A stretch of DNA of 40,228 nt. Source: an uncultured Subdoligranulum sp. Lineage in GTDB: Bacteria > Bacillota > Clostridia > Christensenellales > CAG-314. The notes under the pieces are model-generated. The model did no database searches, was not told the origin of the DNA, and worked only from the letters and a program-made list of their open reading frames with translations. The first letter of the stretch is position 1. Each line of letters opens with the position of its first letter. The stretch is from NCBI GenBank assembly GCA_900551395.1, contig URVX01000001.1:1-40228 (forward strand), read 5' to 3'. Positions 16,108 to 33,614 of the stretch are shown here, one piece after another. A program made the position numbers and the translations under genes.

Positions 16108-18904
16108 ATGACCGATACGGAGAGGAAAAAGGCGGCGAAAGAGTTTGCCGAATATTGGCAGAATAAAGGCTATGAAAAGGGCGAAAGCCAGACCTTTTGG
16201 TTGACGCTTTTGAGGGATATTTTGGGCATATCCAAGCCCGAACAGTTTATTACGTTTGAAGAAAAAGTCAAGCTCGACAACACAAGTTTTATCGACGGGC
16301 TTATCCCCTCCACGCACGTTTTAATCGAACAAAAGAGCGCGGACAAGGACTTGCGCAAACCCATAAGGCAGTCCGACGGCACTCTGTTAAACCCCTTTCA
16401 ACAGGCAAAACGCTACTCCGCCGAGCTGCCCTACTCCGAACGCCCTCGATATATAATAACCTGCAACTTCCGCGAATTTCTCATTTACGATATGGAGAAG
16501 CCCACGGGCGAACCCGACAGCATACTTTTAAAAGACTTGCCCAAGGAATACTACCGCTTGCTATTTCTTGTTGAAACCAAGAGTGAACTGTTGCACCGTG
16601 AGGAGCGCATTTCCATTCAGGCGGGCGAGCTGGTAGGCGTATTATACGACGAATTATTAAAGCAGTACAAAGACCCCGCCGACGAACACGCCTTAAAAAG
16701 CCTTAATATGCTCTGCGTAAGGCTTGTTTTCTGCCTTTATGCGGAAGACAGCGGTCTGTTCGGCGAACACCTTAAATTCCACAACTATATCAAAAAGGTT
16801 GCCGACAAGGATAAAAAAGACGTTCGCCGCACGCTAATAGAGCTTTTCAAAGTCCTCGATATGACGCCACAAAAGCGTGAAGAATACGACCCGTTTATGG
16901 ACGAAGAGCTTGCCTCGTTCCCCTACGTCAACGGCGGATTATTCGCCGACGAAAACATACTTATTCCACCCTTTAACGAAAGGATAGTCAGTCTTTTATT
17001 GAAAAACGCAAGCGAAGATTTTGATTGGAGCGAAATCTCCCCCACCATTTTCGGCGCGGTGTTTGAAAGCACGCTAAACCCCGAAACACGCCGTTCAGGC
17101 GGTATGCACTACACCTCGATTGAAAATATCCATAAGGTAATCGACCCCTTGTTTTTAGACGATTTAAACGCAGAGCTTGAACAAATCAAGGAAATCAAGG
17201 TGGAAAAAACCCGCAACGCACAGTTGGAAAACTTCCGTCAAAAGCTTGCCTCGCTCACCTTTTTAGACCCCGCCTGCGGTTCGGGCAATTTCCTTACGGA
17301 AACCTATATCTCCCTGCGCAAACTTGAAAATAAGGCGTTGGAACTGCAATATCACGGGCAGATACAGTTTGAAACGGGCAGTATTATTAAGGTTTCAATC
17401 GGTCAATTTTACGGGATAGAGATAAACGACTTTGCGGTAACGGTTGCAAAAACCGCGCTTTGGATAGCCGAAAGCCAAATGCTGAAAGCAACCGAAGAAA
17501 TCGTCAATATGCGCCTTGACTTTTTGCCCTTGAAATCGTATGCGAATATTGTGGAAGGCAACGCCCTGCGCCTCGATTGGGAGAGCGTAGTACCCAAAGA
17601 TAAACTAAACTACATAATGGGCAATCCGCCGTTTGTGGGTTATTCTTTGCAATCACCCAAACAAAAAGCAGATATACTTTCTATATATGTGGACGAAAAA
17701 GGCAAGCCATATAATACGGCAGGAAAAGTTGACTACGTTGCAGGTTGGTATTTCAAAGCGGCGAAACTGATTGCAAATACAAATATCAAAGTGGCGTTTG
17801 TATCGACGAACTCTATCACGCAAGGCGAACAGGTAGCCGCAGTATGGAAACCGCTTTACGATAGGTTTAATATCCATATTGATTTTGCACATAGAACATT
17901 TAGGTGGGATAGCGAGGCAAGTTTAAAAGCCCACGTTCATTGCGTTATTGTTGGGTTTAGTGTTGCACCGAATAATAAGCCTAAAATTATATATTCTTCC
18001 GATCGCCCGTTAATTGCGGAGAATATAAACGCTTATTTACTTAACGCACCAAACATTTTTATCGAAAGCAGAAAAAAGCCTGTCGCCGCTGTTCCTGAAA
18101 TATTAAAAGGCAGTAGCCCCGTAGATGACGGTAACTTTTTCTTCACTGACGAAGAATATAATGAATTTATAAAAGCGGAGCCACAGTCAAAAAAATACAT
18201 AAAAAGGTTTTTTGGTGCAAGAGAATATTTACACAATATTCGCCGTTGGTGCTTATGGTTGGTTGGAGTTTCTCCTGCTGAACTTAAAACAATGCCTTTG
18301 GTAATGCAACGATTGACTTCTGTTAAAAATTTTAGACTTTCTAGTACAAAATCGGCAACACAAAAATTTGCAGATTATCCTTATCGATTTATGGAATTAC
18401 GGCAACCAACAACAGATTATATTTTAATCCCTAGACACACTTCTGAAAATCGAAAATATATTCCGTTTGGTTATGAGTGCTGAAATTATATGTGGTGATG
18501 CAAACAATATGTTACCACAGGCAACGCTATTTCATTTCGGTGTTTTAACTTCAAACGTTCATATGGCGTGGGTTAGAGCCGTTTGCGGTAGATTAGAAAT
18601 GCGATATAGATATTCAAACGATATTGTCTACAATAACTTCCCGTGGTGCAATCCTACCGAAAAGCAAAAGGCGAAAATCGAACAGACGGCGCAAGCAATT
18701 TTGGACGCCCGTGCACTCTATCCCGATTGCTCGCTTGCCGATTTGTACGACGAGGTTACAATGCCGCCCGAACTCAGAAGAGCTCACCAAGCAAACGACA
18801 AGGCAGTTATGCAGGCATATGGGTTTGATGTCAAGACAATGACCGAAAGCGCTTGCGTCGCCGAACTTATGAAAATGTATCAGGAATTGGTGGAGGGGAA
18901 ATGA
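16108..18904 (+). pseudogene. MmeI-family type IIL restriction-modification enzyme (fused endonuclease / N6-adenine methyltransferase), reading frame interrupted near 18472-18476
   Basis: ORFs 16108..18483 and 18467..18904 are consecutive parts of one protein.
- N-terminal PD-(D/E)XK-like motif: FIDGLIPSTHVLIEQKS (D-X10-EQK).
- SAM motif I: FLDPACGSGNFL.
- Catalytic motif IV: IMGNPPFVG.
- C-terminal block: FHFGVLTSNVHMAWVRAVCGRLEMRYRYSNDIVYNNFPW.
The first frame reads YIPFGYEC then a stop. The second frame (open from 18428) continues SAEIICGDANN. This fits a +1/-2 indel. Confidence 0.8.
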
Positions 18905-18905
18905 A

Positions 18906-20065
18906 ATGACGGATTATGATTTATTGATTGTAGGAAATGGTTTTGATATTGCTTGCGGTTATAAAACTTCGTACCAAAATTTATACGAACTAATGAAAGC
19001 TGCAAGTGAAAAAGATGAACAAGAATTTTACGCATATTTTGAAAGAGAAAACCCTAATATTGAATTAGAAACGGCAAAATCAAGAGGGTTGTCTATTTTC
19101 TATAACGAAATTAGCAGAACGCTGAAATCAAATATTTTTATAAATTACTTTTTAGCCTATAATACTGTTTTTGAAAGTTGGGTAGCTTTTGAAACCGAAT
19201 TAACAAACATTATCAATGCTTTTGATAATTTTTTTGAAGCGCTTAAAAAATATATGCCAAGAAACTCGGTTTATGATTTTGTATATACCGTTATTCCTAA
19301 TTCTATCGATGAAATTGTTTTTTCTTTAATTAAGGAATGTTCATATTTTAGTCAAGAATATTGCACAGAACTCATTCACACACATTTCGCTTTTATATTA
19401 AGGATTTGCATAATATTCAAGGTTTATTATGGACAAATAAAGTAAATGAATATATAAATAACTTTTGTGATTATATCTATACAGAACTAAACAAGTCTTC
19501 AAATCTCTTTTCTACATATTTAAATATTTTTACTGCACTTAAACCATCTAAAACAGCTAGTAAATTTGGTTTTAAAATAGATTACGCTATTTGTTTCAAT
19601 TATACAAAAACGTGTGAGTTAGTGTATAAATCATCATTAGCATCCATATGTTACCTTAACGGTAAAATAAACTACCAAAATAGAGTAAATGAGTTACTAT
19701 CAAGCAACATTATTTTTGGTACAAATGAAGCGAGTTTTAAAAATATAGGATTGGACAAATTAACAAAAAGCAGCCAAAGACTTCTTAAAGAAACAGATTT
19801 CAATAACTTAAATGAAATGCTTGAAGGAGCTAAAGAATCTTGGAACGAAAATGTGTCGATTTGTATATACGGACATTCATTAAGCATAGCTGATAAAGAT
19901 ACATTAAAAATGATATTTAAATGCTTTAAAAAGCTGAATATTTATATTTATTATTTAAACGATAAAGCTAAAGAAGAACTGATAGCTAACTTAAAAGTAA
20001 TTTTAACCCCTAAAAAGGTAAGTGAATTAAATTCAAGCAACTGCTTGAAATTTATAAAATGTTAA
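18906..20065 (+). pseudogene. AbiH-like abortive-infection protein, reading frame interrupted between 19352 and 19445
   Basis: N-terminus MTDYDLLIVGNGFDIACGYKTSYQNLYELM matches the AbiH-family signature (hydrophobic-IGNGFD-x3-G-x-x-T-x-Y). ORFs 18906..19445 and 19361..20065 overlap in different frames and together give ~386 aa, a typical AbiH size. The ATG lies 1 nt after the stop of the RM gene. The DNA is very A+T-rich. Confidence 0.7.
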
Positions 20066-20538: not shown

Positions 20539-20615
20539 TGGCGCGCCTTAAGGAGCTCGAATCCCTAACCTTTGGTTCCGTAGACCAACGCTCTATCCAA
20601 TTGAGCTAAAGGCGC
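20539..20615 (-). tRNA. tRNA-Arg (anticodon ACG), CCA encoded
   Basis: Minus strand: GCGCCTT TA GCTC AATTGGATA GAGC G TTGGT CTACGGA ACCAA AGGTT AGGGA TTCGAGC TCCTT AAGGCGC G CCA. This gives a 7-bp acceptor stem, 4-bp D stem, 5-bp anticodon stem with loop CT-ACG-GA, and a T arm with a TTCGAGC loop. Length 77 nt. Confidence 0.9.
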
Positions 20616-21529: not shown

Positions 21530-23475
21530 TCAATGCGGCAACACGCCGTCGTTGCCTTCGGACGCCGACGGTCTTTTGTCCTGCGTCGAATATTTGACGT
21601 CGATAAAGTCAATTACCTCCGCGGCGCTCTTGCCTTCCATAAGCATATTGACCTCATCGGTGTGAATGGTTTCTTTTGTTATCAGCACCTTTGCCATGTT
21701 GTGCAAAATATCCAGCTTGCCCTTGAGAATTTCCGTGCCGCGCGCATGACACTCGTCTACGATGCGCCTGATTTCCTCGTCGATAAGAGCCGCCGTCTCG
21801 TCGGAATAGCCCTGCGTTGTGTGATAATCTCTGCCGACAAAAACCTCCTGATCTCCGCCGTAATACAGCAAGCCGACCTTTTCGCTCATGCCCCACTCGG
21901 TGACATTTTGCGGCAGCGTTCAGTCAACGCCTTTATATCGCCGCTGGCGCCGGTGCAATAGTCCTCAATAACAAGTTCTTCGGCAATTCTGCCGCCAAGC
22001 GTCATGGTTATGTTGTCAAGCAGGTAAGCCTTCGAGACATGCTCGTTGTCGTTTTCGGGACGCGTCATCGTGAAGCCTGCCGCCATCCCGCGCGGTATAA
22101 TTGTGACCTCGTGCACGGGCTCGCAGTTCTTGAGACTGCACGCAAGTATTGCGTGTCCCGCCTCGTGATAAGCGGTTATCCGTTTGTCATGCTCGGTAAC
22201 AAGACGCGACTTTTTGGCGGGACCCATTTCCATTTTGGTTATTCCCTCGTTGACGTCCGCCATAGTTATCTGACGCCTGTTGTCGCGCGCGGCAAGTATT
22301 GCGGCTTCGTTGAGGCAGTTTTCCAAATCCGCGCCGGTAAACCCGGACGTAATTCTGGCTATCGTTTTGAAGTCTACGGTTGCGTCTATGGGCTTGTTGC
22401 GCGCGTGCACCTTCAGAATAGCCTCTCTGCCTCTGACGTCGGGACGATTCACGAAAATCTGCCTGTCAAAGCGTCCCGGACGCATAAGCGCGGGGTCAAG
22501 CACGTCGGGGCGGTTTGTCGCCGCCATAACGATAATCCCGCTGTTGGTGTCAAAACCGTCCATTTCCACAAGCAGTTGGTTCAAGGTCTGCTCTCTTTCG
22601 TCGTTTCCGCCGCCGAGTCCCGCGCCGCGATGTCTTCCGACAGCGTCTATTTCGTCGATAAACACTATGCACGGCATGTTTTTCTTTGCCTGCTCGAAAA
22701 GGGAACGCACCCTGCTTGCTCCGACACCGACGAACATTTCCACAAAATCACTGCCCGAAATGGAGAAAAACGGAACGCCCGCTTCTCCCGCCACCGCTTT
22801 GGCAAACAAGGTTTTGCCTGTTCCCGGAGGGCCGACAAGCAGCACGCCGGCGGGAATTCTCGCACCCAGTTCGGTATATTTGCGGGGGTTTTTCAAAAAG
22901 TCGATGATTTCTACAAGCTCTTCCTTTTCCTCCTCGGCGCCGGCAATGTCTGAAAAACGCGTCTTGACGCTTTGCTGGACGCGCGCCGTGTTTTTGCCGA
23001 AGCTCATCCCCTGATTGTTCTGACTGCGGAAAATGTTTATCATAAACACAAACATAACGACAATCAAGATAATAGAGAAAAGCGTAGGCAAATAATCCCA
23101 AAAGCTCGCCTGCACCGGATTGTTGAACCCGATTTGAACGGCAGACGCCCCCGCAGGCAGACTGTCGTTGCTCTCCGTTATCAATTCGTAAATAACGGGG
23201 TGCATGTTGGGTCCGATGTAAAAGAAATAATCGTAATACTTTTCCGCGTTGTTACGCGAGGCTGCTTCGGTGTTTCTCTTGACTACGTTTACCGAATAAC
23301 CCGTGTTGAAGTAGACCGCCTGAATATTGCCGGCGTCCAGATCCTCCTTGAACTGAGCGTAAGTGGATTGCTTGCTGTTGCCTACAAACTGCAGTATGAA
23401 AACCACTGCGAGCACAACCACCAGCAAAATAATCAATATCATCCACCAGCTAGTTTTTCTGTTGTTCTGATTCAA
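21530..23475 (-). CDS. ftsH: ATP-dependent zinc metalloprotease FtsH; frame broken by an apparent 1-nt deletion at ~21904 as assembled
   Basis: ORF 21886..23475 carries the TM anchor, Walker A GPPGTGKT, the SRH region and the zinc motif HEAGHAI. ORF 21530..21889 is the C-terminal continuation ([12 protein letters not shown]...). On the minus strand, AAA ATG TCA CCG AGT GGG GCA TGA becomes AAA ATG GTC ACC GAG TGG GGC ATG AGC if one G is added, giving [17 protein letters not shown] start at 23475 follows AAGGAG. Confidence 0.85.
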
Positions 23476-25044: not shown

Positions 25045-25551
25045 TTATGCGCTCAAAATTATGCTGTCGGCTATTGTTTCCGCCATTTTTTCTACCAGCA
25101 TAACCCTGTCGGAGTGAGATGAATAAAAATCCTGACACCCGCGCTTGCTCACCACTCCCAAAATGCTTACGTCCCCTACCTGCGGCAGGTTTTTGTTGGT
25201 TGCGGCGCCCGGCATAATTCCTCCCTTGTGTATCTGAACACAGCCGACCTCCTCATTGTCTCCGACCGCTGCATCGATAACTACAATCTGTTTTTCCGGG
25301 TGCATAACTTTTACCATATCATACGCCAAAACAAGATTCTGCGCGTTTACATTGCAGCCCTCATAACCGTAAATCAACAGTGGGCGCTTCATTTTATTCT
25401 GCAGCAAAGTTCCCACTCTGGGTCCCAAACTATCCCCCGTAACATTCTCCGTCCCTATGCACAGCAAAACTATATCCCTCGCAAGCAAAGGCTTCAACTG
25501 ATTGCTTATTTGTTCCGCCGCGTTTTCCCTGTAAATTGTTGTACTTTCCAT
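25045..25551 (-). CDS. yyaC: sporulation protein YyaC-type putative protease
   Basis: IVLLCIGTENVTGDSLGPRVGTLL and VVIDAAVG...GGIMPGAA match the YyaC/GPR-like family, and the position next to parAB is as in Bacillus. I prefer the start at ATG 25551 (MESTTIY), which follows AAGGAG. Confidence 0.7.
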   Translation of the reverse strand: MESTTIYRENAAEQISNQLKPLLARDIVLLCIGTENVTGDSLGPRVGTLLQNKMKRPLLIYGYEGCNVNAQNLVLAYDMVKVMHPEKQIVVIDAAVGDNEEVGCVQIHKGGIMPGAATNKNLPQVGDVSILGVVSKRGCQDFYSSHSDRVMLVEKMAETIADSIILSA

Positions 25552-25691
25552 GCAAGACTCCTTTTTGAAAAAAATTATTCCCACAAAAAGCCCGAATTAT
25601 ACTGCCCTTAAGCATTTTAAAGCATATTTTATCAGAAACGCCGCTTACAATTTTGACGAAAGGTGTAGTTACTTGTTGTTTTTTAAATTTA

Positions 25692-25707
25692 CTTTTCACG
25701 TGAAACA
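25692..25707. promoter_or_regulatory. parS-like site (14/16 to TGTTTCACGTGAAACA)
   Basis: Sequence CTTTTCACGTGAAACA. Confidence 0.6.
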
Positions 25708-25728
25708 CCCTAGCTACAAACGCAATAA

Positions 25729-25744
25729 AGTTTCACGTGAAACA
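25729..25744. promoter_or_regulatory. parS site (15/16)
   Basis: Sequence AGTTTCACGTGAAACA, starting 37 bp after the previous site. Confidence 0.75.
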
Positions 25745-25842
25745 ACAGCCAAAAATCAATCACCGCCTTACAAATTTTTAATTCTATTAAAATATGGCAT
25801 AACGGACAAAAATCGGTACTTTCTGCCGCAAAACACATCTCT

Positions 25843-26565
25843 CTCTAAAACGAGCTGAGACAGAATAGCGTTTTTTTTAATCCAAAAAAATATAATTCCA
25901 TTCTGCCTCACAAAAAATGCCAATAGAGCGCAAACTCAAATCTTGTATCAATCAATTTGGAAAATCGGGTACGCCACATGGCAACGGATATCCGCTCCTT
26001 GCGTTTGCCTTACCAATTGCTTTTGACTTTGTAGAGCTGAGCAAGTTACATATAAAATTATAAATATTTTGAAAATATTAATCATTAATTAAAAAGCTTA
26101 AGTAAGGCAAATTCGGGTTAACTCATAAATTGAATAAAATGGCAAAATACCGGGAGCCGCTCTAAAACGAGCTGAGACAGAATAAGAATTTTTTAAACCC
26201 CAAAAAAATTATGCCATTCTGCCTCACAAAAACGCCAATAGAACGTAAACTCAATCTTAAATCAATCAATTTTAGAAATTTTGGCACGCCACATGCAAGG
26301 AGCAAGCTGCTTACATTTGCCTTTCCAAAGCTTTTGATTTTGTCAAGCAGCAACAGTAAGTTATATTCAAGAAATAATTAAATTTTAAAAGTCGTTAATA
26401 AAAACTTTATAATTAGGGCAAATCCCGGTAACTCACACACATTAAATAAAATGACGAAACGCCGGGCTCTTTAAAGAAAACAGAAAAATTCTCTCTTCTC
26501 AGACAGATTAGTCAAATTTTTTTTCGACGAAAAAACTTCTCATTCTGTCTCAGCTCGTTTTAGAG
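25843..26565. repeat. non-coding structured repeat element: two diverged ~317-bp direct units plus a third hairpin-only unit, with an identical 24-mer in two direct copies and one inverted copy
   Basis: CTCTAAAACGAGCTGAGACAGAAT lies at 25843-25866 and 26160-26183, and its exact reverse complement at 26542-26565. Each copy starts a long A/T-cored hairpin (25857-25909, 26174-26225, 26498-26553). No ORF with an RBS was found. Confidence 0.8.
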
Positions 26566-26613
26566 GGAGGTAAATTTTTATTATTCAATGCCTCGAAATA
26601 CATAAAAAGAGGA

Positions 26614-26629
26614 TGTTTCACGTGAAACA
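26614..26629. promoter_or_regulatory. perfect parS site inside a 28-bp palindrome (26608-26635)
   Basis: TGTTTCACGTGAAACA (16/16), embedded in AGAGGATGTTTCACGTGAAACATCCTCT. Confidence 0.85.
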
Positions 26630-26652
26630 TCCTCTAAAATTCTTCCATGACA

Positions 26653-27423
26653 CTATCGACCGATAAGTCCGAGCAGCCATTCGGAGATTTCCAAAATAAA
26701 GCTTCCGATATTTGTAGTGTATAGCTTCTCGTCGAAAAAGTCAGTAATAAAGGCAACGTCAATAAAGGTTCTGCCCAGATTTATTGCCGAGAATACAACG
26801 GAAATCCAGAAAATTGCCAGAACCGCGCCTAAAACAAGCCCCAAAAGCTTGTCAACCACCTTCAAAACGGATATTTTCGTCACAGCCTTAGTAAAAAGCT
26901 TTTTCAATATAAGCACGACAATCCCCAGCACGATAAACAAAGCTACGCAACAGATTATATTATTTGCTATGCCTGTCATTGCCTGAGGCATTGTTTCCGA
27001 CAAAATGTCGCCGTCCGCAAGATTTTTCGTCAGAGGAGACGCCAGAAAGCTGAGGATTTTAGGTAAACCGAAAGCCGCCAGCGCTTGTTTGACGGCATCC
27101 GGGTTACTGTTCCAGTCCTGCGGAGTCGTCCAAAGCTCCTCCAAACCGTTTTGGGCGACCTTATCCGTCAAAAATCCGTTGATTTTGTCAAAAATCACGC
27201 CGTTGTCGTCAGGCAAAAGCTTTGCAACCACCTTGCACAACAAAATAGAGGCTATCAAAACAACCAGAAAGCCGCAAAGGGCAAACAGCTGTTTGGTAAA
27301 ACCTCGAAACAAGCCAATAAGCGCCGCAAGTACGATTATACCGAGCAGAACCCAATCGTACGTCCCGAAGCTCACATTGCTTAAAAGCAAAGGATTCATA
27401 AATCTATCGAAAATCAGCAGCAT
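26653..27423 (-). CDS. cvpA: CvpA-family membrane protein
   Basis: N-terminal region DWVLLGIIVLAALIGLFRGFTKQLFALCGFLVVLIASILL resembles CvpA. AAGGAG lies 5 nt upstream of the ATG at 27423. At 256 aa it is longer than typical CvpA. Confidence 0.6.
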   Translation of the reverse strand: MLLIFDRFMNPLLLSNVSFGTYDWVLLGIIVLAALIGLFRGFTKQLFALCGFLVVLIASILLCKVVAKLLPDDNGVIFDKINGFLTDKVAQNGLEELWTTPQDWNSNPDAVKQALAAFGLPKILSFLASPLTKNLADGDILSETMPQAMTGIANNIICCVALFIVLGIVVLILKKLFTKAVTKISVLKVVDKLLGLVLGAVLAIFWISVVFSAINLGRTFIDVAFITDFFDEKLYTTNIGSFILEISEWLLGLIGR

Positions 27424-27661: not shown

Positions 27662-27702
27662 ATTTGTCGGATTTCGATTTGCAATTTTCAACAGGAGTGT
27701 CT

Positions 27703-28485
27703 ATGGGCAAAATCATTGCATTTTCCAACCAAAAAGGCGGTGTAGGAAAAACTACTACGGCAATCAATCTTGCCGCATACGTAGCTCAGGCGGGAAAGAG
27801 CGTTCTTATTGCGGATATCGACCCGCAGGGCAACGCCACAAGCGGCTTTGGCGTGGAAAAGCACAAGCTGAAAGCCACAATGTACGATTATCTTATGGGC
27901 GAAGCCACCGCGGACGACGTTGTGCTTTCTACGGGAGTGGAAAATATACACATAATTCCCTGCAACGCCGACCTTGTGGGCGCCGAAATAGAGCTTGTTG
28001 ACGCGACGCGCAGAGAGTTCGCCCTTAAAAATTGCCTGCTTCCGTTAAAAGAAATCTACGATTATATTTTCGTTGATTGTCCGCCGTCGCTCGGATTGCT
28101 TACGCTCAACGCATTGACTGCCGCCGACGCAATTTTAATTCCCATTCAAAGCGAATTTTTCGCTCTCGAGGGCTTGAGTCAGCTTATAAACACCATAAAA
28201 ATCGTCAAAACTCGGCTGAATCCGTCTCTTTATATAAACGGCGTGGCGCTCACTATGTACGACAATCGTTCAGTTATCAGCCGTCAGGTGACAGCCGAAA
28301 TTGCAAAATACTTCGGAGACAAGGTTTATCCTACCCCCGTACCGCGAAACGTCAAGCTGGTGGAAGCTCCCAGCTTCGGAAAGCCCGTTTCGCTGCACGC
28401 GCCGAGAAGCAGCGGCGCAACCGCATACAAACTGCTTGCGGATGAATTTTTAAAGAGAGAGGAGAGTCAAAATGGCACAAAATAA
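27703..28485 (+). CDS. parA: chromosome-partitioning ATPase ParA/Soj
   Basis: MGKIIAFSNQKGGVGKTTTAINLAAY (deviant Walker A). ATG 27703 follows AGGAG. The ORF track starts earlier, at a TTG. Confidence 0.9.
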   Translation: MGKIIAFSNQKGGVGKTTTAINLAAYVAQAGKSVLIADIDPQGNATSGFGVEKHKLKATMYDYLMGEATADDVVLSTGVENIHIIPCNADLVGAEIELVDATRREFALKNCLLPLKEIYDYIFVDCPPSLGLLTLNALTAADAILIPIQSEFFALEGLSQLINTIKIVKTRLNPSLYINGVALTMYDNRSVISRQVTAEIAKYFGDKVYPTPVPRNVKLVEAPSFGKPVSLHAPRSSGATAYKLLADEFLKREESQNGTK

Positions 28486-29506
28486 AGGACTCGGCAGAGG
28501 TCTTGCCAGCTTGCTTGGCATGAACGAATTGGACGTCGCCCCGGTAAACACCGATTCAAAAGAGGAAAATATTCCGGTTTCCCGTCCTAAAACAGAGGGC
28601 GCGCAGCCAATAATTTCCGACAAAGGCAAAAAAATGATGAGCATTGTAGACGAAAAAGCCTCAAAGCTCAGCGCTCCCGAACACGTACCGCTCGACCCTT
28701 CCGCACGGATAATCGCAATACAGATTTCCATAAAGGATATCGACCCCAATTACGAGCAGCCGAGAAAACACTTTGACGAAGCCGCTTTAAACGACCTTGC
28801 GGAGTCGATAAAAATGCACGGCGTCATACAGCCCATAGTCGTGGTTCGCATGGGAATGCGGTTTATGATTATCGCGGGCGAAAGAAGATACCGCGCCGCG
28901 AAAATGGCAGGTCTGACAAGCATACCCGCGATAATAAAAAATTATTCCCCGCTGCAAATCAGGGAAATAAGCCTTATCGAAAACCTTCAGAGAGAGGATC
29001 TCAACCCTATAGAAGCCGCCCGCGCCATAAAACAGCTGATGGAGGAGTTCAACATGACTCAGGAAACGGCTGCGGACAGAATAGGTAAAAGCCGCTCGGC
29101 GATTGCAAACACATTAAGACTTCTCACTCTTGACAGCCGCGTCATATCGCTTATCGAGGACGGACGCCTTTCCGCCGGTCACGGCCGCGCTCTGGCAGTC
29201 ATAGACAACGAAACCGAACAATTCAACCTTGCTTCCAAAGCAGCCGACAGCAAGCTTTCCGTCAGAGAAATGGAAAAGCTCGTGCGCGAGCTGCTCAATC
29301 CCAAGCCGGCGCCCGCAAAGCAGCAGGAGGATTGCCCCGAACTCAAAGAGCTGGTACAAAACATGCAGCGCACGTTTGCAACAAAGGTAGGCGCCTTGGG
29401 CAACGGCAGAAAGGGACGCATTTACATAGACTATTATACCAAAGACGATTTGGACAGAATCTGTGAGCTGGTAAAGGATTGGTTAAAAAACAATTTCAAA
29501 ATATAA
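28472..29506 (+). CDS. parB: chromosome-partitioning protein ParB/Spo0J
   Basis: N-terminal GLGRGLASLLG, ParB box IQPIVVVRMGMRFMIIAGERRYRAAKMAG, and HTH region QETAADRIGKSRSAIANTLRLL. It overlaps the parA end by 14 nt. Confidence 0.9.
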   Translation: MAQNKGLGRGLASLLGMNELDVAPVNTDSKEENIPVSRPKTEGAQPIISDKGKKMMSIVDEKASKLSAPEHVPLDPSARIIAIQISIKDIDPNYEQPRKHFDEAALNDLAESIKMHGVIQPIVVVRMGMRFMIIAGERRYRAAKMAGLTSIPAIIKNYSPLQIREISLIENLQREDLNPIEAARAIKQLMEEFNMTQETAADRIGKSRSAIANTLRLLTLDSRVISLIEDGRLSAGHGRALAVIDNETEQFNLASKAADSKLSVREMEKLVRELLNPKPAPAKQQEDCPELKELVQNMQRTFATKVGALGNGRKGRIYIDYYTKDDLDRICELVKDWLKNNFKI

Positions 29507-29514
29507 ATTTTAAG

Positions 29515-29537
29515 GCCGCTTATCAAGCGGCTTTTTT
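29515..29537 (+). terminator. intrinsic terminator after parB
   Basis: Stem GCCGCTT-ATC-AAGCGGC followed by TTTTTT. Confidence 0.75.
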
Positions 29538-30144
29538 GTGCTTCATAAAAAATTTCTTTCGCATTTCTTTACAAGTTCGGTCTGCTTAAACAATTTTCAA
29601 TCGTTGCTTTCGCAATGCGAGCGCCAAGACTGAGTTTTTTGCGGTGACTTTATTCGATTTGACTGTTTTTGTTTTTCGTGCATATCGGAGCGCTTAATAA
29701 TAAAAAATCTGCTATTGACAGGAAATTTGTTCGTAAAAATTGCGGAATTTCAATTTATTTGTTATTTTGTTCCGCCTTTATTTATAATAAAGCTTGCCAA
29801 ACAAGATAAATATCGCATTTTTCTTAATAAATATTTTTTATCTCAAACACCTTTATATTATTGTATTTTTTTCCGCGCATCAATTTCTTTATAGTATCTT
29901 TTTTTATACTTAAATAAATCATCTCGTCGAGCCGAGTCAACTCGTATTCCGACGGAGATAAAAAACAAAAGACGGTAAACAATGTCCGGATAATGACGCG
30001 TTGTCAATCCGGTTCAGTTGATAAGGATAAAAACAGCTTGCTTTGTCAAAAATTCGTTCATTTTTGAAAGCAGCTCCAAAATTCGCACAACCAATTGTCG
30101 GCATTGACTTCAAAGGTAAACAGCTAAATAAAACAAAATTTTAA

Positions 30145-30176
30145 AAGGACGGGGAAATTCTTTCCGTCTTTTTTTG
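30145..30176. terminator. orphan, apparently bidirectional terminator-like hairpin in a gene-free 0.8-kb region
   Basis: AAGGACGG (30145-30152) pairs with CCGTCTTT (30064-30071 offset: 30164-30171), with one G-T pair. It is followed by TTTT on + and by TTTTAAAATTTT on -. No ORF of 60 aa or more ends here on either strand. Confidence 0.45.
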
Positions 30177-30325
30177 CGCTTTTTTACGCCGCTTCAAACA
30201 TGTCTAAATATGTCTTATTTTGAAGTTTGCCGCACAAAAGCTAACAGTTTTATTCACTTGTTGCGAGAAAAAGTGTAATCTTAAAATACAAATAGACAAC
30301 CACACCAAATTTCGGAGATATTTTT

Positions 30326-30775
30326 ATGGACCTTATCAGATCTTTTTCGGAACGCTTCAACGAATTGATAATCTATGCCGAAACAACTCCCAAAAAAATG
30401 AGCGCAGATCTCAATCACAATATTCACGACATTTATCATTGGAAATCCGGCACCGCCCGCTTCATGCCCTCTCTGAAAAATATAATCATGCTCGCCGATT
30501 ATTTCAACTGCTCCATAGAGTTTCTGCTGGGGATAGACGACGAAAATAAGCTGCCTCATCCAAAAAAGCAGCTGCCCGATTTCGGCGCTCATTTTAAAAA
30601 GGTGCTGAAGGAGAAAGGAAGCAATCTTTACAGGCTTTCTCTGCTTGCGGGCTGCAAAAACACAAGCCCTTACTACGATTGGCTAAACGGAAAATCCACG
30701 CCGCGAATTGACAGCCTATACAAAATTTCAAAGGTTCTGGATTGCTCGATAGATTATCTGCTCGGGAGAGAATAA
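30326..30775 (+). CDS. transcriptional regulator with two XRE/Cro-C1-type HTH domains
   Basis: Two similar halves, each ending in the HTH_3 C-terminal pattern: LADYFNCSIEFLLGIDD and ISKVLDCSIDYLLGRE. Confidence 0.7.
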   Translation: MDLIRSFSERFNELIIYAETTPKKMSADLNHNIHDIYHWKSGTARFMPSLKNIIMLADYFNCSIEFLLGIDDENKLPHPKKQLPDFGAHFKKVLKEKGSNLYRLSLLAGCKNTSPYYDWLNGKSTPRIDSLYKISKVLDCSIDYLLGRE

Positions 30776-30809: not shown

Positions 30810-31913
30810 TCATGACACCATTCTTACGGGTAGCACGAGATACAGATATTCGTCCGTTTCGCACGGCGTAATTATGCAGGGCGCAACACTCGAAGTGAAA
30901 TTCATCTTTACGAAATCGTTGTCCATTGCTCTCAGGCAATCAGAAATGTACTTTGCGTTGAAAGCTATATTCAAGTCCTTGCCTTTTAAGCTTATGCTTA
31001 CGTTTTCCTTTATGTTTCCAAGCTCAGACTTGCCCGTTATGCAGACGATATTTTCCTTGACTTCGAATTTGACCAGATTGTTTTTCTCTCCGCGACTCAA
31101 CAGACTTGCGCGATCCAAAGCCGCCTCGAACTGCTGCTTGTTTATTATTACGTTTGTCGTAAACTCCTCAGGAATAATCTGACGATAATTTATATATTCT
31201 CCCGAAAGCAGCCTTGTGCTCACCGTCGTGTTTTCCATTTCCACGACAAGCAGATTTTCTTCGACGAAAAGTCTGGCTATCCTGTCTCCGTCTCCCAGCA
31301 GCTTCGACAGCTCGCTCAACGCGCGGCTGGGGATGACGAGACTCATTTTTCCGCACTTTTGCTCCAGCGCCTTTTTTGCCAACGCAAGCCTGTAGCCGTC
31401 AAGCGCAACAACAGTTAAGGTATATTCTTCTATTTCAAACAAGCATCCTTTGAGTATCTGTCTGCTGTCGTCCGTGCTTGCCGAAAACAGAGTTTTTCCG
31501 ATAACGTCTCTCAGCTCGCTTTCGAGGATATGAAAGCCCTTTTCTCTGTTTATCTCGGTTTTGTCGGGATAATCCTCCTTGTCGAGACATTGCAGATACC
31601 CTTCGCTTTCGTTATATCTGATTCTGAGTCTGTTTTTCTCCGTTTCGGAAAGCTCTATCTGTTCGTCCGTCAGCTTTTTGATATAATCCGAGAATATTCT
31701 TCCGGGTACCAGAATTTCTCCTTCCTCGATTATTTCCGCATTTATTTTTAGTTCAACCGAAAACTCGGAATCGGTTGCGTAAAGCGTCAGGGTTTCTCCC
31801 TCCGCAGTGATTTTGATACCTTCAAGCACGGGATTTACCACCCTTTGAGGCAGAGCCTTGCTTACCTTGCTTATAGCATCGCTCAAATCGAGCCCGTCGC
31901 AAATTAACTTCAT
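30810..31913 (-). CDS. dnaN: DNA polymerase III beta sliding clamp
   Basis: 367 aa. MKLICDGLDLSDAISKVSKALPQRVVNPVLEGIKITAEGETLTLYATDSEFS is a typical DnaN N-terminus. GGAGG lies upstream of the ATG at 31913. Confidence 0.9.
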   Translation of the reverse strand: MKLICDGLDLSDAISKVSKALPQRVVNPVLEGIKITAEGETLTLYATDSEFSVELKINAEIIEEGEILVPGRIFSDYIKKLTDEQIELSETEKNRLRIRYNESEGYLQCLDKEDYPDKTEINREKGFHILESELRDVIGKTLFSASTDDSRQILKGCLFEIEEYTLTVVALDGYRLALAKKALEQKCGKMSLVIPSRALSELSKLLGDGDRIARLFVEENLLVVEMENTTVSTRLLSGEYINYRQIIPEEFTTNVIINKQQFEAALDRASLLSRGEKNNLVKFEVKENIVCITGKSELGNIKENVSISLKGKDLNIAFNAKYISDCLRAMDNDFVKMNFTSSVAPCIITPCETDEYLYLVLPVRMVS

Positions 31914-32255
31914 ATTCCTCCGTTTGCGGAAATTTTTCCGTCAGTAAAGTAGATAATATTATTTTTTCTGTTGGTAGTAGTAGTAGTAGTGTATGTAGAA
32001 TTGTGGACAAGCATGACGGCTGTCCGACAAGGATATTATATATTGTTTCCGGAAAAAATGCAAGCACAATATGTTGCGAAGAAAAAAGAAATTGGTCAAA
32101 AACAAGTCTGTGGAACAAAAGTGGAAAGACTCCGAAGAAATTAACAAAGTATACGGTTTTGACTCGGGCAAGCACCGGTCGGAAAGAAATGATTTGACAA
32201 AAACGAGCAATTTGATATAATAACAGAGATTTAAGAGAGAAAATTCGAGGGAAAG
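31914..32255. other. candidate oriC (dnaN/dnaA divergent intergenic region)
   Basis: From left to right: an A+T-rich stretch AGATAATATTATTTTTTCTG (31941-31960); the trinucleotide run TAG x5 then TGT ATG TAG (31965-31988); TGTGGACAA (31992-32000, 8/9 to the DnaA-box complement TGTGGATAA); and TGTGGAACA (32099-32107, 7/9). Gene orientation switches here, with most genes on - to the left and all on + to the right. Confidence 0.65.
32184..32211 (+). promoter_or_regulatory. dnaA promoter
   Basis: TTGACA (32184-32189), 16 nt, TATAAT (32206-32211) with an extended -10 TG at 32203-32204. Confidence 0.55.
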
Positions 32256-33614
32256 ATGGATTTAAAAAAGGTTTGGGAAAACGTGCTGCTGGAAACGCAG
32301 GGTTCGGTTTCGGCAATGAGCTACGATAATTGGCTGAGCAATACCGAGGCGGTGTGCATTGCGGACGACGAGCTGGTGGTAAGCGCCGACAGCGAGGTGG
32401 TATTGCGGCTGGTTGAGATGAAATACGCCGATTTGCTTAAGGCTTGTACCAAAAAGGTCGCGCCTAAAATAAGAAATATAAAATTTGTGCTGCCTTCGGA
32501 AAAAAGCAGATACGACGGCGGAAGGTATATTTCGCTGGAGGAATTGAACGAGGACAGCATTGTTGCGGAGGAATATTACACCAATTTCGTGCCGAAGTAC
32601 ACCTTCGACAGCTTTATCGTAGGAAAAAGCAACGAATTTGCGGCGGCAGCAAGCAAGGCGGTGGCAGAAAATCCGGGAGAAAAATACAATCCGCTGTTTT
32701 TGTACGGAGGAGTGGGACTGGGAAAAACTCACCTTATGCACGCAATCGGAAATTTTCTCAAAAAAAGCGATCCGACCATCAAGTGTATGTACACGTCGAG
32801 CGAGAGGTTTACAAACGATTTGATAGAGGCGCTGCGCGCGTCTAAAAAAGCCGACGAAATGAAGGAGTTCCGTCGCAAATACAGAAGCGTGGACGTTCTT
32901 ATGATTGACGATATACAATTCATATCCCGCACGGTTGCCACGCAGGAGGAGTTGTTTCACGTTTTCAATGACTTGTACTTTGCCAACAAGCAGATAATAA
33001 TAAGCTCGGACAGACCCCCTCATGAAATAAATCCTCTGGAGGAGCGCTTGCGCACCCGTTTTCAGGGAGGACTTGTAGCCGATATTCAGCCGCCGGATCT
33101 GGAGATGAGGATGGCGATACTTCAGACAAAGGCATTGAACCAGAATCAGCACGTCGACGACGAGGTTTTGAGTCTTATTGCAAACAAGGTGAAGTCCAAC
33201 ATAAGAGAAATGGAGGGCTTGCTTACAAAGGTGATAAGCTATGCTCATCTGACAAACCGTTCCGTCAACGACCCCGAGGTTGTGGCGGGCGCGCTGAGAG
33301 ATTACGGCGACGACAAGCCCGAGACGGTGACGATAGACAGAATAACGGACGAGGTATGCGCTTATTTTAATGTTTCCAAGTCGGATCTTGTGGGCAAGAA
33401 AAAGACCAAGGACGTTGTGGAGCCCAGACAGATTGCTATATACCTCGTTACCGAATTTCTTACCACGCCGTTGATAACAATCGGAGAGCATTTCGGCAAC
33501 CGCGACCATACAACGATTATGTATGCGAGAGACAAAATCAGCGAAAAGGTCAAGGAGGACGCCAGAATAGCGCGTCAGATAAAGGATTTGAAGGATCTTA
33601 TCATGAAGCGCTGA
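32256..33614 (+). CDS. dnaA: chromosomal replication initiator DnaA
   Basis: 452 aa. YTFDSFIVGKSNEFAAAA, Walker A LYGGVGLGKTHL, Walker B LMIDDIQF, and the C-terminal DNA-binding helix RDHTTIMYARDKI. Confidence 0.95.
   Translation: MDLKKVWENVLLETQGSVSAMSYDNWLSNTEAVCIADDELVVSADSEVVLRLVEMKYADLLKACTKKVAPKIRNIKFVLPSEKSRYDGGRYISLEELNEDSIVAEEYYTNFVPKYTFDSFIVGKSNEFAAAASKAVAENPGEKYNPLFLYGGVGLGKTHLMHAIGNFLKKSDPTIKCMYTSSERFTNDLIEALRASKKADEMKEFRRKYRSVDVLMIDDIQFISRTVATQEELFHVFNDLYFANKQIIISSDRPPHEINPLEERLRTRFQGGLVADIQPPDLEMRMAILQTKALNQNQHVDDEVLSLIANKVKSNIREMEGLLTKVISYAHLTNRSVNDPEVVAGALRDYGDDKPETVTIDRITDEVCAYFNVSKSDLVGKKKTKDVVEPRQIAIYLVTEFLTTPLITIGEHFGNRDHTTIMYARDKISEKVKEDARIARQIKDLKDLIMKR

Follow-up and report, generated by a model that had tools for sequence, protein, structure and literature searches.

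A conserved module of about 80 nucleotides, kept in inverted pairs between yyaC and cvpA near the replication origin in a small group of gut Christensenellales

We analyzed a 40,228-nucleotide stretch of DNA from an uncultured Subdoligranulum sp. (assembly GCA_900551395.1, contig URVX01000001.1, positions 1 to 40,228; hereafter the window), and in it a repeat-bearing intergenic region between the genes yyaC (DUF1256; 25045-25584, minus strand) and cvpA (Colicin_V family; 26653-27423, minus strand), the flanking genes that served as synteny anchors. A first-pass annotation, made from the letters alone, had described about 1 kb without a credible open reading frame (ORF) here, and we found this to be accurate: the gap measures 1068 bp (25585-26652), its ORFs reach at most 63 aa, none of them is conserved in relatives, and none matched Pfam even at E values up to 1. 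The 24-mer CTCTAAAACGAGCTGAGACAGAAT is present in three exact copies, two direct (25843-25866 and 26160-26183, plus strand) and one inverted (26542-26565, minus strand), as had been reported; shuffled sequences predict zero copies, and no further match with up to three mismatches was found in the 40-kb window. A repeat finder run on the window returned a direct repeat with 317-bp spacing and inverted arms of 61-70 nt. The units starting at 25843 and 26160, said to be homologous and diverged, are 74.8% identical over 322 nt by BLAST, with a mean column identity of 83%. This 317-bp duplication is a lineage-specific tandem duplication, carried by one allele of the window species. The conserved part is not the 723-bp element of 317-bp units originally proposed; the real unit is a module of about 80 nt.

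The module reads (A)CCTCCCTCTAAA, 4-5 variable nt, GCTGAGACAGAAT, 32 nt and ATTCTGTCTCA. Its tail, made of CCTCCCTCTAAA, the 4-5 variable positions and GCTGAGACAGAAT, is bipartite, with two invariant blocks around the variable positions, and the last 10-11 nt of the tail recur in inverted orientation 32±1 nt away. The 32-nt center consists of a T-run, a G/C-rich middle and an A-run. Despite the free sequence of this spacer and its two slippage-prone homopolymer runs, 10 of 12 independent modules measure 32 nt from arm to arm, with a range of 31-33 nt overall, so that two 10-bp half-sites, GAGACAGAAT and its inverted copy, lie 42 bp apart center to center, equal to four helical turns. Across the same 12 modules there are no changes in the 5' arm and nine in the 3' arm.

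Three modules are present in the window. Copy 1, the outermost on the yyaC side, lies at 25838-25915 on the plus strand (nhmmer 5.7e-17), with arms TGAGACAGAAT at 25856-25866 and its inverted copy at 25900-25910; the CCTCC of its outer tail is degenerate (CTCTCT). The body of unit 1 follows as an AT-rich spacer (25916-26157; 34% GC) that is homologous to part of the central segment and is missing from the same species' one-unit allele. Copy 2 (26158-26231, plus strand; nhmmer 2.6e-17), an internal direct repeat of copy 1, has arms at 26173-26183 and 26216-26226 and has lost the outer CCTCC (GAGCCG). An AT-rich central segment (26232-26494; 33% GC) separates the facing modules, and beyond it copy 3 on the cvpA side (26495-26571, minus strand; nhmmer 5.2e-20) is inverted relative to copies 1 and 2. 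Copy 3 carries the full tail ACCTCCCTCTAAAACGAGCTGAGACAGAAT, a 5' arm at 26542-26552 and a degenerate 3' arm near 26500-26509.

Related loci were gathered via YyaC, CvpA and their homologues, together with a metagenome scan that used the hairpin pattern. About 45 contigs were obtained, representing at least four lineages; their CvpA proteins are 65-75% identical to that of the window. In 185,579 GTDB species genomes the exact 24-mer occurred at one locus, that of Subdoligranulum sp. CAG:314 (FR901000.1), where it is again found in the cvpA-yyaC gap and flanked by parS sites. The metagenome scan gave 48 loci, 15 of them true modules and the remainder unrelated palindromes; 14 of the 15 are at this locus in the normal order, and the 15th (L061) carries the flank of this locus and is discussed below as a likely chimera. 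A module profile found only the three copies in the window and, in loci of 10-15 kb, only this locus; L022, L023 and L075 gave no match. The carriers form a small group of gut Christensenellales, and no fewer than four related lineages have the module at this locus. As a separate observation, the hairpin pattern also matched a soil and water family of short tandem or inverted repeats of the CAGGAGACAGAATACAG type (L028, L030, L031, L037, L043-L045, L050, L053, L060, L063, L067 and L070), which is unrelated to the module.

The module pair is always inverted with its tails pointing outward, and some loci hold extra direct copies, for two to four copies per locus. Read from cvpA to yyaC, the arrangement is -> <- <- in the window and seven sibling contigs, -> <- in three sibling contigs (L007, L008 and L010), -> <- plus a decayed internal copy (L001 4510-4545) in all CAG:314-type contigs, and -> -> <- <- in L012 and L013. 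Relative to L012, L013 has a 93-nt deletion (L013 4858-4890, L012 4858-4975) with ACAGAAT and ACAATAT microhomology at its bounds.

Between lineages, the gap conserves only parS and the module. Aligned in register, the 31-mer of tail and 5' arm is identical at 30 of 31 positions between species, while comparison of the window species with L001 or L012 gave 70-73% nucleotide identity for cvpA, 41-54% for the third codon positions of cvpA and yyaC, and 46-57% for the 35-nt flank that separates the module from the parS hairpin; conservation ends sharply at CCTCC. The interiors cannot be aligned from one species to another, and within a species they are hypervariable. Between the window and L007, which belong to the same species, parA (99.4%), yyaC (99.3%) and cvpA (98.1%) are nearly identical and the cvpA-side module is 96.2% identical, while the interior falls to 76% (alignable part only) and the spacer from module to parS to 62%. 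This hypervariable patch is bounded by the cvpA-side module and by the inner yyaC-side parS-like site (25729-25744), which forms its left edge. The motif TAACTCA recurs in the interiors of three species and is absent from the L007/L008 allele, and we found no motif common to the interiors of all alleles. Because intragenomic gene conversion cannot conserve repeats across species, the module is under purifying selection; with about 45 constrained nucleotides within neutral, hypervariable DNA, it is a clean case that can be easily tested. We considered a small ORF running through the modules, with a frame (..KK..ILSQLVLEGG..) open in every one of them, and rejected it: the frame mostly has no start codon, the three codon positions are equally conserved, and the sequence after the Shine-Dalgarno (SD)-like GGAGG is not conserved as protein.

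What is conserved is the sequence of the module and not its pairing. The first-pass annotation had suggested a covariation check on related sequences, and in a 16-sequence alignment none of the 11 pairs of the 11-bp base stem was changed on both sides; all variation took the form of mismatches or wobbles in the 3' arm, with no compensatory change, and the RNAalifold covariation term was about 0. The same annotation had described a hairpin in every copy. Those of units 1 and 2 do fold better than shuffled sequences (z scores of -2.5 to -4.6), whereas the third is weak (z scores of -1.0 to -1.5), and the T-run/A-run upper stem that had been drawn is not significantly stable, with a mean z score of -0.85 for the inner 32 nt in 16 modules. 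It had further argued for the minus strand from an A-C mismatch that becomes a G-U pair there; this holds for units 1 and 2, but other modules favor the opposite strand, and the summed energies show no overall preference (-311 vs. -300 kcal/mol). Of the additional local palindromes, CGGATATCCG and AGCAAGCTGCT, the diverged allele of the window species has neither.

The element is always found between parS sites. In the window, parS-like sites are located at 25692, 25729, 26614 (perfect) and 27646, so the two sites on the left and the perfect site on the right noted at first are joined by a fourth. The two on the yyaC side (25692-25707, two mismatches; 25729-25744, one mismatch) span 25692-25744. 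The perfect site (26614-26629) lies on the cvpA side within a 28-bp palindrome followed by a T-run (26608-26635, minus strand), which likely serves as the cvpA terminator as well; perfect palindromes of 28-32 bp with a T-run enclose the corresponding site in L001 (4120-4149) and L012 (4786-4817). The metagenome contigs L014-L016 stop exactly at this parS palindrome. From the center of the perfect parS to the center of the 5' arm of copy 3 is 75 bp, and three lineages keep the equivalent distance at 73-75 bp, over sequence that is itself not conserved. The turning point of the cumulative GC skew is at approximately 31-32 kb, which places the element about 5.5 kb to the left of the origin. The element itself was rejected as a replication origin or DNA unwinding element, given the position of the skew minimum and the lack of any DnaA box within it.

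Taken together, the asymmetry of the arms, the bipartite tail, the fixed spacer and the lack of covariation, strand preference and RNA signals point to sequence recognition at the DNA level. We therefore tentatively favor, as a possible explanation, that the modules are paired, helically phased DNA sites for a putative sequence-specific protein. The steady parS distance of the cvpA-side module in three lineages and a constraint that is confined to the module speak for this reading too. Each module would be a composite, oriented site: an asymmetric, two-part block some 31 bp long (CCTCCCTCTAAA, 4-5 unconstrained bases and GCTGAGACAGAAT), of a form that would be expected for a two-domain DNA binder, and a second, inverted GAGACAGAAT held 42 bp away, center to center, across T-run/A-run DNA. 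Given that this spacing is fixed at four helical turns, both half-sites would face the same side of the duplex. The genome appears to keep at least one inverted pair of modules, 0.4-0.9 kb apart, and the putative protein may bridge (synapse) the two, looping out the AT-rich spacer. With the pair placed among the parS sites, about 5.5 kb from the origin, the effect would likely be architectural, in that the ParB-parS nucleoprotein region could be shaped or insulated.

Several observations weigh against this proposal. In a more distant relative (L023, YyaC 54% identical), the gene order is the same and a gap of 900 bp comes with two parS sites, but there is no module; any centromere role is therefore dispensable or lineage-specific. 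In L013, the outermost cvpA-side module has lost its hairpin half and kept its 24-mer tail. A fourth lineage (L018) has its perfect parS 98 bp from the module, and on the yyaC side the distance varies from 117 to 258 bp. A protein reading a fixed-length hairpin in RNA or in single-stranded DNA would give a similar conservation pattern. The SD-like and anti-SD-like GGAGG/CCTCC at the end of the tail is left unaccounted for, as are the hypervariable interior and the persistence of extra direct copies. Finally, we identified no binder. The sole lineage-linked candidate nearby is a gene at 30326-30775 that encodes a 149-aa protein with two XRE-type helix-turn-helix (HTH) domains and is present in the parB-dnaN interval of all module-bearing relatives seen, with nothing that ties it to the module. 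We rejected this tandem-HTH protein as the binder and retain it as a bare lead: it neighbors parB in module-bearing genomes, and a homologue with 47% identity occurs in an unrelated, module-less context.

That the module is instead a conserved part of one or more transcripts is an explanation we consider unlikely. It could take two forms. In the first, small RNAs would expose a single-stranded CCUCCCUCUAAAAC tail able to pair with SD regions; the layout of tail and hairpin resembles a seed and its scaffold, the tail contains a near-perfect anti-SD (CACCUCCUUCUAA, in L012), the opposite strand reads as an extended SD (AGAAGGAGGUG), and copy number varies within a single intergenic region, like that of multicopy small RNA (sRNA) arrays. 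In the second, a long transcript would alternate between the local hairpins, two of which beat shuffled sequences as described, and a 24-31-bp duplex of the inverted tails, akin to an RNase III-type processing stem; the inverted 24-mers are indeed able to pair perfectly. In four alleles, however, promoter-like and terminator-like matches were no more frequent than in shuffles, and no promoter or terminator was conserved on either side of any module. The modules themselves were rejected as intrinsic terminators: each strand reads T-run and then A-run, with no U-tract abutting the stem. We searched Rfam 15 at gathering and permissive thresholds and found only a tRNA in the whole window; the best matches of the region had E values above 1, and three related loci gave nothing. 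The SD-like motif is not followed by an ORF, and the cvpA terminator lies just upstream, so low read-through is expected. Combined with stem changes that are all one-sided and a favored strand that differs between modules, these results speak against the array of small RNAs that had been suggested initially. The long-range duplex meets a further objection, as differences between partner tails (three adjacent in L008, one in L001) are uncompensated, which argues against selection for long-range pairing.

It is quite unlikely, in our estimation, that the modules are recombinase sites of a rarely flipping switch, like an inverton or shufflon, with the enzyme encoded elsewhere. Under such a scheme the segment between inverted copies would flip, direct copies could be deleted or duplicated, and outward transcription would change. 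The geometry is suggestive: the sites have an orientation and lack symmetry, 0.37-0.40 kb of AT-rich non-coding DNA lie between inverted repeats whose exact core measures 24-31 bp, and whole units vary in copy number (1+1, 2+1, 2+2). Such inverted-repeat geometry is typical of invertons, including fimS, the Bacteroides PS promoters, and the cwpV and flgB switches of C. difficile. Yet all of the approximately 33 full-length assembled contigs are collinear, comprising 17 of the 20 CAG:314-type contigs examined (three are truncated within the element), 10 sibling contigs plus the window, two of the L012 type, two of the L072/L074 type, and L021. Polymorphisms of the cvpA-side tail were never found on the yyaC-side module, direct copies are stable in 7 of the 10 contigs of the window species, and a Pfam screen of the larger ORFs of the 40-kb window found no recombinase domain. 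Promoter-like matches are at or below the level of shuffles, and for yyaC there is a proximal -10 element of its own. Inversion or transfer is hinted at by L061 alone (OMAY01010996.1), a 2.1-kb gut-metagenome contig in which a cvpA-type flank, a yyaC-side module and 175 nt from the central segment are joined in reversed order at positions 682-992. The outer parts of this contig, a DUF-like ORF and a gene for an ABC ATPase, are low in GC and foreign, and its joins fall on parS and on an AT-rich low-complexity run; it is probably an assembly chimera, and we rejected it as proof of inversion.

The favored DNA sites could also be tied more closely to the centromere. The modules would then be a lineage-specific accessory part of it, where a bridging protein at sites 73-75 bp from the strongest parS controls the loading and sliding of ParB-CTP clamps or SMC, and the bridged pair may loop out or wall off the AT-rich, fast-evolving spacer next to the origin. 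We regard this as very unlikely. An accessory centromere element, among the roles first listed for this DNA, is possible: the constant distance to parS in three lineages gives it slight encouragement, and the fourth lineage, at 98 bp, departs from it.

Mobile elements were assessed as well. The inverted arms are 61-80 nt long with a 24-31-nt exact core, as in terminal inverted repeats, and the element is small, non-coding and tandemly duplicated, with one internal copy decayed. When the bases outside CCTCC were read directly in the window, L007, L001 and L012, no target-site duplication was seen at any of these four allele types; the flanks are A/T runs that extend the inverted symmetry. BLAST of one module against 72,556 plasmids and 50,697 phage records gave only chance matches of 20-30 nt, viral contigs held no match to the 24-mer core or the hairpin pattern, and the screened window ORFs contained no transposase domain. 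The earlier statement that the region belongs to no described RNA or insertion sequence (IS) family held up against Rfam and these plasmid and phage collections. Elements of the IS200/IS605 type, which are associated with palindromes and have subterminal hairpins on one strand at both ends, were rejected as the outermost modules are inverted, not direct, in every allele. Sites of integron attC arrays share one orientation and carry R''/R' boxes (RYYYAAC / GTTRRRY) at the stem base; an array of this kind (a cluster of attC sites lacking integron-integrases, CALIN) was rejected, with GAGACAGAAT/ATTCTGTCTC at the stem base and opposed orientations here. By reading, rRNA-type boxA, ssoA CS-6, CodY and Spo0A boxes showed partial or single-module resemblance only and were also set aside. 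A relic of a miniature inverted-repeat transposable element (MITE), as initially suggested, or a neutral local duplication with repeat identity kept by gene conversion is highly improbable in view of the single locus (in the window, the 10-15-kb loci, the 185,579 species genomes and the metagenome scan), the lack of target-site duplications and of plasmid, phage or viral relatives, the shared syntenic position in at least four lineages, and a sharp boundary at CCTCC beside saturated flanks, a cross-species pattern that intragenomic gene conversion cannot give. The neutral-duplication case had been framed as a sequence that occurs only here and is unconserved in close relatives; the module does occur only here, but in relatives its conservation at this locus is strong. 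Whatever probability lies beyond the four readings, namely protein-read DNA sites, RNA, switch and mobile relic, falls to mechanisms that we have not thought of.

The surroundings of the element hold some further features. On the far side of cvpA are parA (27664-28485, plus strand), parB (28472-29506, plus strand), dnaN (30810-31913, minus strand) and dnaA (32256-33614, plus strand). The ParB proteins of this clade are 331-345 aa long, with a low-complexity insertion of about 60 residues between the N-terminal GLGRGL and ParB_N; ParB of the module-less relative L023 has 296 aa. A second large gap of about 820 bp (29507-30325), without a convincing ORF, lies between parB and the tandem-HTH gene. 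dnaN and dnaA are divergent, in contrast to the usual dnaA-dnaN tandem, and tilS directly follows dnaA. The 343-bp gap between dnaN and dnaA holds the GC-skew minimum but a single DnaA box at up to one mismatch (32002-32010); DnaA-box-like matches cluster at 35.7-36.7 kb and 38.6-39.6 kb. On the other side, ftsH is split in the window (21530-23475, minus strand): a 529-aa ORF (21886-23475) ends within the M41 peptidase domain and a 119-aa ORF (21530-21889) holds the remaining part (Pfam profile positions 107-190), while sibling contigs encode an intact 637-aa FtsH, so the split is a frameshift or an assembly error. Farther out, a low-GC island (33-44% GC over about 12-20 kb) contains defense genes that look broken (16108-20065, plus strand), with an MmeI-type restriction-modification enzyme split over 16108-18483 and 18467-18904 and an AbiH-like gene split over 18906-19445 and 19361-20065, followed by a tRNA gene (20542-20615, minus strand).

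As it stands, this is a well-documented conserved element with a putative function in one narrow clade, and it overturns nothing. Should they prove to be sites that a protein reads and that are linked to parS, the modules would represent a rare chromosomal centromere region with an extra, lineage-specific cis component and would provide a handle for finding the binding protein; if they belong to an RNA or a switch, they would constitute a new family, from a gut order that has been little studied. A literature search returned nothing on this element and no known family fits it; key features of MITEs, Rfam RNAs, IS200/IS605 elements and attC arrays were looked for and are missing here.

Small non-coding repeats such as the Correia elements of Neisseria, the pneumococcal RUP and BOX elements, REP/BIME and MITEs in general are, like the module, short, bounded by inverted repeats and capable of forming hairpins; unlike them, our element has a single locus, no target-site duplication, an unconserved interior, no similar sequence in the plasmid and phage records searched, and cross-species synteny under purifying selection. 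Multicopy sRNAs with C-rich anti-SD seeds are found in Listeria (LhrC1-4) and in staphylococci (RsaE-type motifs). Arrays of this type also consist of conserved units of about 80-100 nt with variable spacers in one intergenic region, and the CCUCCC of the module complements the SD sequence, but here there are copies on both strands, no promoter or terminator, no covariation and no Rfam family. Invertons come closer. In both cases a few hundred bp of AT-rich intergenic DNA lie between inverted repeats, which are conserved around a variable interior, and the recombinase of an inverton need not adjoin it. The differences are that the repeat here is a composite of about 80 nt with its own dyad at 32-nt spacing, that no orientation variant appeared in the roughly 33 full-length contigs and no recombinase in the screened ORFs, and that neither a promoter nor a controlled gene is evident. 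Finally, plasmid partition and centromere loci are built from short, closely packed repeats that are read by proteins under phasing constraints: pSC101 par has direct and inverted repeats and binds gyrase, P1 parS is bent by IHF, and F sopC and R1 parC are further examples. Unlike these loci, the modules are spaced 270-400 bp from one another on a chromosome already equipped with canonical parS, and their binder is putative; like them, they are non-coding, lie beside an origin and partition region, and consist of direct and inverted repeats in variable number. The nearest analogies for the module pair would thus be invertons and repeat-built cis loci such as pSC101 par and the plasmid centromeres.

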